Of a stretch of 64,000 nucleotides of DNA, positions 770 to 2,490 are shown in pieces. Within the stretch, counting starts at the first letter, position 1; every line of letters starts with the position of its first letter. The translations under genes were made by a program, and so were the position numbers. The stretch lies in sequence record PQ390715.1; one strand, 5' to 3'. The DNA comes from Escherichia phage SHEFM2K. The notes under the pieces were generated by a model. That model worked only from the letters and a program-made list of their open reading frames with translations. It was not told where the DNA came from and did not search any database.

Positions 770-1096
770 CTATAGCAAGTCGTTATCCATATCATCCCAC
801 ACAGAATCAATGATGTTTGCTGCTATCTTTTTAGACATTTTAAACCACTCCGTGTTTGGTTGTCTAGTTGCATTCATTTGTTTAAGCCTTTTATGTATCT
901 CTTTTTCAGCTAAACGTGCGTCTTCAAAGTGAACTTCATGATAAACTTCAAAATCACGAAACGGGGTAGCTGTCTGATACGTTCTCAAACGCTCTGTCAT
1001 TTCAGATTTAGAAGTGAAACCAATCTTAACATAGTCAGGCCATGCAGAGTTTATTATAACATAACATATCTGTGACATAGATTCAATCTCCATCAT
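770..1096 (-). CDS. T5orf172 / GIY-YIG-superfamily-like domain protein (108 aa)
   Basis: Motif pattern CYVIINS...YVKIGFTSKSEMTERLRTYQTATPF...EIHKRL...TEWF matches the T5orf172/MUG113 domain signature as remembered (YV..., KIG.T, R, H..L, EWF). Confidence 0.5.
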   Translation of the reverse strand: MMEIESMSQICYVIINSAWPDYVKIGFTSKSEMTERLRTYQTATPFRDFEVYHEVHFEDARLAEKEIHKRLKQMNATRQPNTEWFKMSKKIAANIIDSVWDDMDNDLL

Positions 1097-1117
1097 TAAT
1101 ATGGAGATATTTATCTA

Positions 1118-1477
1118 TCAACTAATAGTGAATTTTAAACCAATATCAATTAAACGTTGAAAAGGATTATGTGGCTGAAATTCCGATGGTTCTTGTGCTA
1201 TGTTTAGTACAGGAGCATCAGAATGCAGCACCGACATACGTTCTCTATAATGATCTATGTATTCTTCATACAACATATCTTCAGTATGTGTATTAAGTAT
1301 ATCTTCTATAAAAGAATCTAAACTATAATCCAATCTATCATCATTATAATACAATGTTTCAGTGGCTTCATCATATCCAACTAACGTACCATAAGGAACA
1401 TTTATTTCTATATTTGAGTACTGACTCTTTAAGTACTCTTCTTTGTTAAATTTGTATACAGTTAACATCCGTGTCAA
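1118..1477 (-). CDS. Hypothetical acidic protein (119 aa)
   Basis: ORF in same orientation and tightly packed between the two T5orf172-like genes; no recognisable motif. Confidence 0.35.
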   Translation of the reverse strand: MTRMLTVYKFNKEEYLKSQYSNIEINVPYGTLVGYDEATETLYYNDDRLDYSLDSFIEDILNTHTEDMLYEEYIDHYRERMSVLHSDAPVLNIAQEPSEFQPHNPFQRLIDIGLKFTIS

Positions 1478-1491
1478 CTCCTTTAGATTGT

Positions 1492-2490
1492 TTACTTAGT
1501 TTTCCATTCTTTTATCATGGATAGTACTAATACCAAATCTTCTTCATTGAAAGTTTCAGTGTATCCATCAGGGAAATCTTCTTTTTCAACAACTTTATTA
1601 GTTATAGTACCTTTTATTTTTTGTTCGAGGTCTTGTGCTTCTCTTCGTGTTTCAAAGTTTTCAATTAACAAAACATCATGTTCAGTATGAGCATAATGTT
1701 TTTGTTGACTAATTCTACGATTGATATCATTAGTTACACCCAATTTATAAAATACACCTTTTGTTGGGTGAGTTATTTTTTGTACATATAAAGTTGATGG
1801 TTCACGCATAGTACCTTCACTTTCGTTACATACGGGGCAATGTTCTCGGTTAGTTTTTCTGAAGTTTGCTAATGATTTATAAATTTTTATATCTTTGTGA
1901 AGTGAGCACCCAAATACACACTCGGTAAGATGATAATCAAACGTTTCATCATATTGAAAATCATCATATGTGTACTTGTCACCATGAATTTTCATCAACT
2001 CTTTTTTCATAATATTTGTATCTTTTCGTTTAGAAGAAATCATTCGTTCTTTGCCGCATTCTAAACATCCAGCGTTTTTACCAACAAATCCATCATATGA
2101 AATTTCAAATTCCAAATCATGCTTATAACATACGAACTTTACTTTTGAATTTTTCTTATCAACATAATAGCAGGTAGAAATATATTCCCACGGTTTGTTC
2201 TCATTTTGTATTCGTGACAAACATGCATGTTTATATTGACTTTCAGTTTTAGGAACACTAGTCCCGTTCTGCTGTTTCATTATACCACAATGTTGACATT
2301 TTTTTCTTGATGAGAAGTTATCGATACTACACGACAATATAGAAGATTTACAATCCCAGCATGTGTATGAAAAATTACTTTTGGCATTTTTAAAATTAAT
2401 TATTTTATGAAATACAATGTTTAAGTTGTTAGTTTTTATGATGGTAAGAATCTTGTCTACGTAATATTGTTCATCGAATTTAGAAGCCAT
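1492..2490 (-). CDS. Cys-rich (multiple CxxC zinc-ribbon-like pairs) protein with C-terminal T5orf172/GIY-YIG-like domain (332 aa)
   Basis: N-terminal half has CWDC, CQHCG, CLECG, CPVCN pairs; C-terminal region LYVQKI...GVFYKLGVTNDINRRISQQKH...E...ETF parallels the 770-1096 product. Confidence 0.45.
   Translation of the reverse strand: MASKFDEQYYVDKILTIIKTNNLNIVFHKIINFKNAKSNFSYTCWDCKSSILSCSIDNFSSRKKCQHCGIMKQQNGTSVPKTESQYKHACLSRIQNENKPWEYISTCYYVDKKNSKVKFVCYKHDLEFEISYDGFVGKNAGCLECGKERMISSKRKDTNIMKKELMKIHGDKYTYDDFQYDETFDYHLTECVFGCSLHKDIKIYKSLANFRKTNREHCPVCNESEGTMREPSTLYVQKITHPTKGVFYKLGVTNDINRRISQQKHYAHTEHDVLLIENFETRREAQDLEQKIKGTITNKVVEKEDFPDGYTETFNEEDLVLVLSMIKEWKTK

Follow-up and report, generated by a model that had tools for sequence, protein, structure and literature searches.

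Background

Barth, Dunham & Seed (2023, PMC10448857) described T5orf172 proteins from vibriophage ICP1 and further phages as putative homing endonucleases, with the same architecture as the protein considered here. Tandem CapR/DUF723/DUF4379 zinc fingers were recorded in 87% of such genes, 31% of them lie in capsid-gene neighbourhoods, and different endonucleases can share one site with flanks that are nearly unchanged. The phages highlighted in that survey are ICP1, T5-like, Plateaulakevirus and VpaJT-like phages, and no mention of jumbo or Escherichia jumbo phages was found in it. In this study, we analysed a stretch of 64,000 nucleotides (nt) from Escherichia phage SHEFM2K (PQ390715.1), hereafter the window, focusing on an open reading frame (ORF) of 332 amino acids (aa) that follows the major capsid gene. 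This gene is probably a free-standing T5orf172-family homing endonuclease gene that occupies a turnover slot behind the capsid gene.

Free-standing nuclease genes next to conserved genes are best known from T4, in which SegF and SegG, both GIY-YIG genes, cut inside the neighbouring gene and cause co-conversion. The cleavage site of a Seg enzyme can be a few hundred nt away in that neighbour. In ICP1, gp121 is a putative endonuclease with CapR homology and the capsid operon ends with gp122, which encodes the capsid monomer (PMC8096241); the gene numbering implies that gp121 probably adjoins the capsid gene, as the 332-aa gene does in the window. The T5orf172 domain of ICP1 Odn (gp88) is a real DNase that depends on a Glu residue (PMC8263062), the equivalent of which in the window is E289, and the zinc-finger module of the satellite protein CapR binds DNA specifically (PMC8096241). 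For Rak2-like phages, the genome literature gives HNH-type endonucleases only (PMC5259590), and endonucleases other than HNH are not listed in the searchable Rak2-like literature. The locus thus seems to be undescribed, although its kind is known.

Organization and polymorphism of the post-capsid slot

The window belongs to an Asteriusvirus with a backbone of the PBECO4 type, one of the Rak2-like jumbo coliphages; its relatives are of ~350 kb. The region of interest comprises the following features, and every gene in the first 6.6 kb of the window is on the minus strand.

2630-3805, minus strand: major capsid protein of the gp23 type, 391 aa (Pfam Gp23, E=1.3e-89)
2559-2586, minus strand: intrinsic terminator of the capsid gene, stem-loop AGGGACTCTTCGGAGTCCCT and T-run TTTTCTTTT, upstream edge of the slot
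1492-2490, minus strand: Cys-rich ORF of 332 aa with a C-terminal T5orf172 domain, the only polymorphic gene of the three genes downstream of the capsid gene
1118-1468, minus strand: acidic protein of 116 aa (PHROG 15724, without a Pfam match)
770-1078 (ORF to 1096, 108 aa), minus strand: small T5orf172-only protein of 102 aa (T5orf172/MUG113)

The first-pass annotation of this DNA, which was made from the letters alone, had listed the capsid gene with its terminator, the Cys-rich T5orf172 gene, the acidic gene and the small T5orf172 gene, and all of these were recovered, the three ORFs at the listed coordinates on the minus strand. It had also compared the region with T4-like genomes, a placement that we correct here: these Rak2-like jumbo phages share T4-type head genes, yet the phages themselves are not T4-like.

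The slot was defined as the interval from the capsid terminator to the ATG of the 116-aa gene, and representatives of the ~99%-identical relatives were compared across it. Its flanks are 99.0-99.9% identical to those of Escherichia phages PBECO4, phAPEC6, SP27 and other members of Asteriusvirus. In megablast searches, relatives at ~99% identity covered 82-83% of a 6-kb query in two pieces, because the slot interval differs between phages. The terminator, whose stem-loop and T-run were called at 2567-2586, 3' of the capsid gene, is conserved throughout the compared alleles; in Turkey5 its stem-loop is a variant one. The slot contents were as follows (UE-S1, ph0011 and GAP32 coordinates are those of the compared stretches).

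Empty, with a spacer of 39-47 nt: PBECO4, fEgEco12
Empty, with the terminator T-run joined straight to the ATG: Salmonella phage SD-6_S16
Empty: Yersinia phage Yen9-04
Occupant of 300-307 aa: slurp01, Ecwhy_1 (305 aa), EC.P1; 304 aa in Salmonella phage Munch
Occupant of 332-341 aa: this window, TH47, JNE01, four metagenomic variants
Occupant of 365-368 aa: 121Q, phAPEC6, vB_Ec-M-J, A4
Occupant of 406 aa: Turkey5
Occupant of 532-552 aa: UE-S1 (1986-3644), ph0011 (1500-3098)
Remnant, 77-aa ORF GAP32_251: Cronobacter phage GAP32 (2675-2908)

Presence, absence and replacement were therefore all found at one fixed locus among phages with flanks up to 99.9% identical. The full-length occupants comprise six T5orf172 types, which form four clearly distinct classes, and one unrelated class of 532-552 aa. 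All of the 300-406-aa occupants are zinc-finger plus T5orf172 proteins; the 332-aa class shares 21-37% identity with the other T5orf172 occupants, the 406-aa class is ~35% identical to the 307- and 365-aa classes, and the 300-307-aa proteins stand closer to those of 365-368 aa (59-69% identity). The 532-552-aa occupant has no similarity to any T5orf172 occupant. Pfam assigns it DUF7487 (E=1.8e-12) and, below the cut-off, REase_MTES_1575, and it probably represents a different nuclease family using the same landing site. The 77-aa ORF of GAP32 matches the C-terminal half of the T5orf172 domain only (43-47% identity to the 332 class, E ~1e-11 to 1e-13), a 42-nt stretch of the GAP32 slot is 90% identical to window positions 1545-1586, and the ORF looks like a decayed endonuclease remnant. 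The exact 332-aa protein of the window was present on 17 public contigs, always in the order capsid, 332, 116, 102, tail fibre, and four variant types of the protein were likewise confined to this slot. The mobility proposed in the first-pass annotation is supported for the 332-aa gene, and it does not extend to the acidic and small genes, which stood at this position in each of the related enterobacterial genera checked.

Such variation might also arise by ordinary gain and loss of dispensable DNA, if the region behind a strong terminator were an intergenic hotspot of illegitimate or homologous recombination and the occupants were inert passengers that do not home. SD-6_S16, a simple deletion in which the terminator T-run joins the next ATG, is readily understood in this way, as is the difference between the window and PBECO4, an insert with no conversion of the flanks, and homing activity of the occupants is itself a prediction. 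Passengers taken up at random would not be expected to be nuclease-like in seven of seven full-length types (six by T5orf172, the 532-552-aa type by DUF7487 and the sub-cut-off REase match), to leave a T5orf172 remnant in GAP32, to keep intact catalytic residues under selection, or to be accompanied by sharply bounded mosaic tracts in all seven comparisons described below. We therefore regard ordinary gain and loss as very unlikely to explain the slot.

In SD-6_S16, the empty slot (1468-1542 of the compared stretch) has the junction CCCTTTTCTTTTTTATG, and the spacer and ribosome-binding site (RBS) of the 116-aa gene are gone. Genomes of the SD series fall short of their relatives by 20-40 kb, and their scaffold genes are annotated as split, so that assembly quality may be an issue in them.

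Outside Asteriusvirus, a homologue of the 332-aa protein (tblastn 1e-10) was found ~700 nt downstream of the gene for the capsid protein in OU509535.1, an unannotated Klebsiella pneumoniae phage genome of Alcyoneusvirus-like type (coordinates 242161-243333 and 244058-244669). The post-capsid slot may thus be used in Klebsiella jumbo phages too, though most of them seem to be without the small T5orf172 gene.

Domain structure of the 332-aa protein

The 332-aa protein matches T5orf172 (PF10544) over residues 235-329, with E=1.3e-5 and a score of 26.0 bits (cut-off 20), is matched at 7.7e-18 by a hidden Markov model (HMM) built from a diverse T5orf172 alignment, and belongs to PHROG 681, annotated 'endonuclease' (E=3.7e-38). 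It contains 14 Cys and has an isoelectric point (pI) of 8.5. A word-indexed homologue search with the protein alone retrieved five close relatives, and a profile of slot proteins was needed to go further. Homology to ICP1 tcgB/gp130 extends along its length (tblastn 3e-9 over 89% of the query, blastp 1.3e-15), with only 21-25% identity to ICP1 proteins. Searches of the 332-aa and small proteins against PDB sequences with phmmer returned nothing relevant, and PADLOC gave no match for the 332-aa protein. Two parts were distinguished in it.

1819-2472, minus strand: three tandem zinc-binding modules, the presumed DNA-binding part (alignment and AlphaFold2 model)
1498-1797, minus strand: T5orf172 (GIY-YIG-fold) nuclease domain, residues 232-331, with conserved Y235, K249, G251, R259, E289 and E312

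Module 1 spans residues ~7-75 (ligands C44, C47, C65, C68), module 2 residues ~83-154 (C121, H124, C142, C145) and module 3 residues ~158-224 (C191, C195/H198, C218, C221). In an alignment with the other slot proteins, Munch, RaK2 ORF274 and ICP1 tcgB, the invariant Cys were C44/C65/C68, C121/C142/C145 and C191/C218, and the aligned homologues of these modules match Pfam CapR (1e-10 to 2e-11), DUF723 and DUF4379 significantly. An AlphaFold2 model of the protein (mean pLDDT 81.6) shows three repeated helix/hairpin units followed by the nuclease domain, in which residues 232-331 are modelled as a beta-beta-alpha-beta-alpha domain; the alpha/beta fold of GIY-YIG nucleases is predicted for both T5orf172 proteins of the window.

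Nuclease-domain residues Y235, K249, G251, R259, Q263, E289, G309, E312 and T313 are invariant in the same alignment, and Y235, R259 and E289 are so in both alignments examined. Whether the catalytic Arg and Glu are retained had been left to alignment in the first-pass annotation, and the answer is that both proteins keep them, as R259/E289 in the 332-aa protein and R30/E58 in the small one. The catalytic-domain motifs read xYV...(Y/V)K(L/I)G, which is typical of the T5orf172 branch, and the canonical GIY...YIG motifs were not found. The diverse T5orf172 profile reaches UvrC GIY-YIG domains weakly (E=0.22), with its Tyr and Arg aligned to UvrC Y19 and R39.

Slot junctions and the mosaic end of the capsid gene

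Four features mark the borders of the insert and the capsid gene upstream of it.

2520-2548, minus strand: putative sigma-70-like promoter (TTGTGA, 17 nt, TG-TATTAT) from a consensus scan, followed by the RBS AAAGGA before the ATG at 2490
2549-2557, minus strand: 9-mer TAAATACAC at the upstream junction in inserts of the 332 class, shared with the spacers of empty sites
1469-1497, minus strand: downstream junction of 29 nt, AAGTAAACAATCTAAAGGAGTTGACACGG, consisting of the last Lys codon, the stop and a 23-nt spacer
2630-2888, minus strand: mosaic tract, the last ~260 nt of the capsid gene, candidate location of homing target or immunity sites

The 9-mer was identified from a comparison of two inserts (window, JNE01) with two empty sites (PBECO4, fEgEco12); as it is common to inserts and empty spacers, it marks the probable insertion point. 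The 29-nt downstream junction is identical in the 307-, 332- and 365-aa occupants of the PBECO4 clade and contributes the RBS of the following 116-aa gene. This shared junction suggests that the occupants replace one another by recombination between occupied alleles. Each of the other full-length occupants also has a -35/-10 pair of its own immediately behind the terminator (TTGACA-17-TATAAT in that of phAPEC6), and promoter-like sites overall are not enriched in this AT-rich region.

The capsid gene was then compared in seven pairs of phages that are near-identical over kilobases and differ in slot content. All seven have 17-37 substitutions in the first 300 nt counted from the capsid stop, and then ~0-1 substitutions per 100 nt over the next several hundred nt. 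On the other flank, a similar, less regular block of substitutions covers the 116-aa and 102-aa genes. Within the PBECO4 clade, the capsid genes of phAPEC6, 121Q and slurp01 differ from that of the window by synonymous differences only, and that of UE-S1 has 5 non-synonymous sites across the gene as well. Capsid haplotypes are mosaics shared across backbones; 121Q and A4, for instance, whose endonucleases are of one class, differ at 7% of sites over the whole capsid gene and at 0 of its last 84 nt. The pattern of the tract is what would be expected of double-strand-break repair with co-conversion, or at least of a recombination hotspot centred on the slot. A distant cleavage site of the Seg type would, by analogy, fit a capsid mosaic of ~300 nt.

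At the outer edge of the tract, a synonymous patch at nt 942-954 of the capsid gene (window 2852-2864) reads either GAG GAC ATT TTG or GAA GAT ATT CTA. Over the initial 12 loci, its linkage with the 332 class looked complete, and its exclusiveness as an 'immunity patch' was broken by 13 added loci: the Leu codon TTG occurs in 8 of 8 distinct 332-class carriers, but also in PBECO4, SD-6_S16, vB_Ec-M-J (365 class) and Ecwhy_1 (305 aa). Scans of IMG/VR for the two haplotypes returned 0 contigs and 1 contig, the one being 348,532 bp in size, as is the 121Q record, and so gave no additional test. We keep the patch as a lead, compatible with a resistance allele or a co-converted marker and evidence for neither.

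Selection, proposed mechanism and points against homing

The ratio of non-synonymous to synonymous substitution rates (dN/dS) was 0.12-0.15 for the 332-class gene and 0.10-0.125 for the 365-class gene, and 0.03-0.05 for both the small T5orf172 gene and the capsid gene (the latter within Asteriusvirus). The values of the slot genes indicate that they are maintained as working proteins and are not decaying pseudogenes.

Purifying selection of this strength would also suit a domesticated 332-aa protein, a site-specific DNA binder or nuclease serving the phage, with slot variation reflecting diversifying selection. It might be a regulator near the capsid operon, like CapR, or a weapon against competitors or satellites, like ICP1 Odn; the family has been co-opted before in exactly these two cases (PMC8096241, PMC8263062), the gene is always in the same slot, and the divergence of its alleles roughly parallels that of the backbone. 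A protein serving the phage is harder to reconcile with the empty slots of the near-identical PBECO4 and SD-6_S16, with the unrelated nuclease held by UE-S1 and ph0011, or with the decayed remnant in GAP32. The gene, moreover, comes after the capsid gene and terminator and is not placed at the capsid promoter, and no satellite of these phages was found in the literature searched. Domestication of the 332-aa protein is accordingly considered unlikely.

Under the preferred interpretation, that of a homing endonuclease, the three zinc-finger modules would recognise a DNA site and the C-terminal GIY-YIG-fold nuclease would cut a co-infecting relative that is without the 332-aa gene. The break would be repaired on the carrier genome as template, so that the gene would be transferred to the cut genome together with its own early-type promoter and part of the flank. 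Recurrent invasion, replacement, decay and loss could generate the many slot alleles and the mosaic at the 3' end of the capsid gene; the 116-aa and 102-aa genes lie outside the mobile unit.

Several observations weigh against this interpretation. The first-pass annotation had described both proteins as T5orf172/GIY-YIG-like: the T5orf172 half of that description is borne out above cut-off in both, while the direct match to the Pfam GIY-YIG model (PF01541) is not significant for the 332-aa protein (E=0.27) and absent for the small one, a poor score that is normal for the T5orf172 branch. The 332-aa protein's own match to CapR is weak (E=0.021), and the promoter was called by similarity to a consensus, in DNA that is rich in AT. 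Identity to the nearest other alleles of the 332 class is only 77-86% and roughly follows the divergence of the backbone, which is compatible also with long vertical residence and repeated loss. The capsid gene of the window is 100% identical to that of PBECO4, in which the slot is empty, so that there is no co-conversion tract for this particular gain or loss, and the capsid patch proved not to be exclusive to the 332 class. Cleavage, target and biased inheritance are predictions for all of these proteins, which are putative endonucleases.

The G+C content is 0.41-0.47 in the capsid gene (window 2550-3750) versus 0.27-0.31 in the three downstream genes (1050-2700), and synonymous divergence (dS) between phage lineages is several-fold lower in the capsid gene (0.30 versus 0.6-1.6). 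The low dS and high G+C are consistent with strong codon bias in the capsid gene, which complicates the comparison of dS across the slot.

The small T5orf172 gene and its acidic neighbour

The small protein (770-1096, 108 aa) matches T5orf172 at E=3.7e-13, its 50.3 bits standing well above the cut-off (20), and MUG113 at E=9.3e-13. Its start is most likely Met7 (ATG 1078, 102 aa), with GGAG 9 nt upstream, as in most orthologues. The T5orf172 domain occupies residues 4-91 of the 102, the structure model is that of a single domain, no separate DNA-recognition module is present, and Y6 is kept along with R30 and E58 (102-aa numbering). The acidic protein has a pI of 4.36 with 22 D+E versus 8 K+R, and its start is ATG 1468 (116 aa) behind AAGGAG, not TTG 1477.

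Both genes were found at this position in each related enterobacterial genus checked (Asteriusvirus, Munch-like, Mimasvirus and Eneladusvirus), and the order capsid, slot, acidic, small T5orf172, tail fibre is common to Munch, GAP32 and Yen9-04; the tail-fibre gene is the next gene after the small T5orf172 gene in transcription order. The small gene stood at the same position in all Asteriusvirus records examined, a distribution that is not sporadic, and a total of 65 phage records matched it at 80% coverage or more. Its orthologues, of 100-108 aa and 63-93% identity, occur in ~350-kb jumbo phages of Escherichia, Salmonella, Cronobacter, Pectobacterium, Erwinia, Serratia, Yersinia and Xanthomonas. 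According to tblastn, the gene is also present in CBB and in Erwinia, Serratia, Pectobacterium and Xanthomonas relatives, its position there being checked only roughly. Of 11 Klebsiella records with a capsid of this type, just 1 has it, and most Klebsiella Alcyoneusvirus records apparently lack the gene. The Munch orthologue shares 78% identity with the small protein of the window, against only 28% for the two acidic proteins; the acidic homologue at the same position in GAP32 has 32% identity. The three gene products gp222c-224c of phAPEC6 are not in its virion mass-spectrometry table, which jumps from gp215c to gp225c (PMC7247149).

By this distribution, the small and acidic genes are fixed, strongly constrained, non-virion core genes that are not mobile, and the dN/dS values put the small gene under strong purifying selection, equal to that on the capsid gene. 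The small protein is most likely an active stand-alone nuclease of the GIY-YIG type with a housekeeping role, and possibly an anciently domesticated endonuclease catalytic domain. A role as an anti-phage defence protein was considered and rejected, as PADLOC PDC-S57 (3-93 of 212) and PD-Lambda-1 (359-438 of 496) were matched in the T5orf172 part only.

It is on these two genes that the idea of a single accessory islet at 770-2490, carrying two mobile or selfish T5orf172 genes, comes to grief. The idea, put forward in the first-pass annotation, drew on the T5orf172 domain present in both proteins, and the vB_Ec-M-J record does label the small one 'homing endonuclease'. The small and acidic genes nevertheless lie between the slot and the tail fibre in Asteriusvirus, Munch, GAP32 and Yen9-04, and the small gene combines its wide distribution with the lack of a DNA-binding module and a dN/dS equal to that of the capsid gene. 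The annotation itself had named universal conservation at the position as an argument against mobility, and the conservation of both genes is such an argument. The islet as a unit is thus hardly credible.

Labels given to the small gene in public records are 'GIY-YIG nuclease family protein', 'T5orf172 domain protein' and 'hypothetical protein'; the vB_Ec-M-J gene labelled 'homing endonuclease' lies at 758-1066 of the compared stretch. The conservation of the gene makes that last label misleading.

Going beyond a plain homing endonuclease, two further proposals may be entertained, which taken together we hold to be speculative and rather doubtful. The conserved pair of 102-aa and 116-aa genes could be an anciently domesticated catalytic domain with an essential function in Rak2-like jumbo phages, possibly as a two-component nuclease with an inhibitor or adaptor, or by making breaks that turn the region into a hotspot and keep the slot turning over. 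The 332-class enzyme, for its part, could cut the capsid gene ~220-300 nt from the insertion point, in which case the silent codons near nt 942-954 might be immunity alleles.

Genome context

Upstream of the capsid gene in transcription order, the window contains the following genes.

5079-5702, minus strand: prohead protease (Peptidase_S77, E=1e-20)
3897-5012, minus strand: scaffold gene, between the protease and capsid genes

The capsid protein is 100% identical to the capsid proteins of PBECO4 and phAPEC6. Only two T5orf172 proteins, the 332-aa and the small one, are encoded in the 64-kb window, in which a search for paralogue expansion revealed no more T5orf172 or slot-like proteins.

Upstream of the protease, a 286-aa ORF (5723-6583, minus strand) is extremely acidic and of low complexity, with long D/E runs; its homologues are labelled 'virion structural protein' in PBECO4 and 121Q, and the phAPEC6 homologue (gp228c) was found in virions. 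The exact T4-type late-promoter motif TATAAATA occurs on the minus strand just upstream of the capsid gene (3851-3858) and of the scaffold gene (5060-5067). With 6 occurrences in the window versus 9.9 expected, the motif is not enriched, and it precedes none of the 332-, 116- and 102-aa genes.

Implications

The present results extend the T5orf172 class of phage homing endonucleases to Rak2-like jumbo phages. One well-sampled locus offers an empty site, several T5orf172 classes, an unrelated class, a remnant and a clean deletion, all flanked by a sharp capsid mosaic, which makes the slot a convenient system in which to test homing, co-conversion and the turnover of endonucleases in coliphages that are candidates for therapy. 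The small T5orf172 gene is a warning for annotation, as it behaves as a core gene despite the label 'homing endonuclease' in at least one record, and mosaicism at the capsid 3' end can mislead phylogenies built on the capsid gene. The current understanding of such elements is unchanged, and the slot is a good example of a known phenomenon.

Comparison with known systems

The T5orf172 family of ICP1 (gp130/tcgB, gp121, gp165 and gp174) resembles the 332-aa protein in its C-terminal T5orf172 domain, its N-terminal zinc modules and its free-standing genes beside an essential structural gene. It differs in being largely expanded, whereas one or two such genes per genome are found here, and the Rak2-like lineage is outside those highlighted for the family; homing is putative in both groups. 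In ICP1 2018_Mat_001 (3659-4849 of the compared stretch), tcgB (gp130), the nearest homologue from a characterised lineage, is directly upstream of a split large-terminase gene, which places another family member beside an essential packaging or structural gene.

With the T4 Seg endonucleases SegF and SegG, the locus shares a free-standing nuclease gene between conserved genes, an own promoter (putative in the window) and presence/absence variation; the mosaic flanks of other allele pairs may reflect co-conversion of the kind seen with Seg enzymes. The catalytic domain, however, is of the T5orf172 branch and not canonical GIY-YIG, and the DNA-binding part is made of tandem zinc fingers instead of modules of the Seg/I-TevI type.

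The small protein is best set beside stand-alone small GIY-YIG proteins, such as the SLX1 catalytic domain, UPF0213/YhbQ-like proteins and T4 endonuclease II. Odn and CapR, finally, are co-opted, single-purpose derivatives, of which Odn has a RepA_N binding domain and CapR is without a nuclease. The 332-aa protein, in contrast, keeps both the nuclease and the zinc fingers, an architecture of the ancestral endonuclease type at a polymorphic locus.

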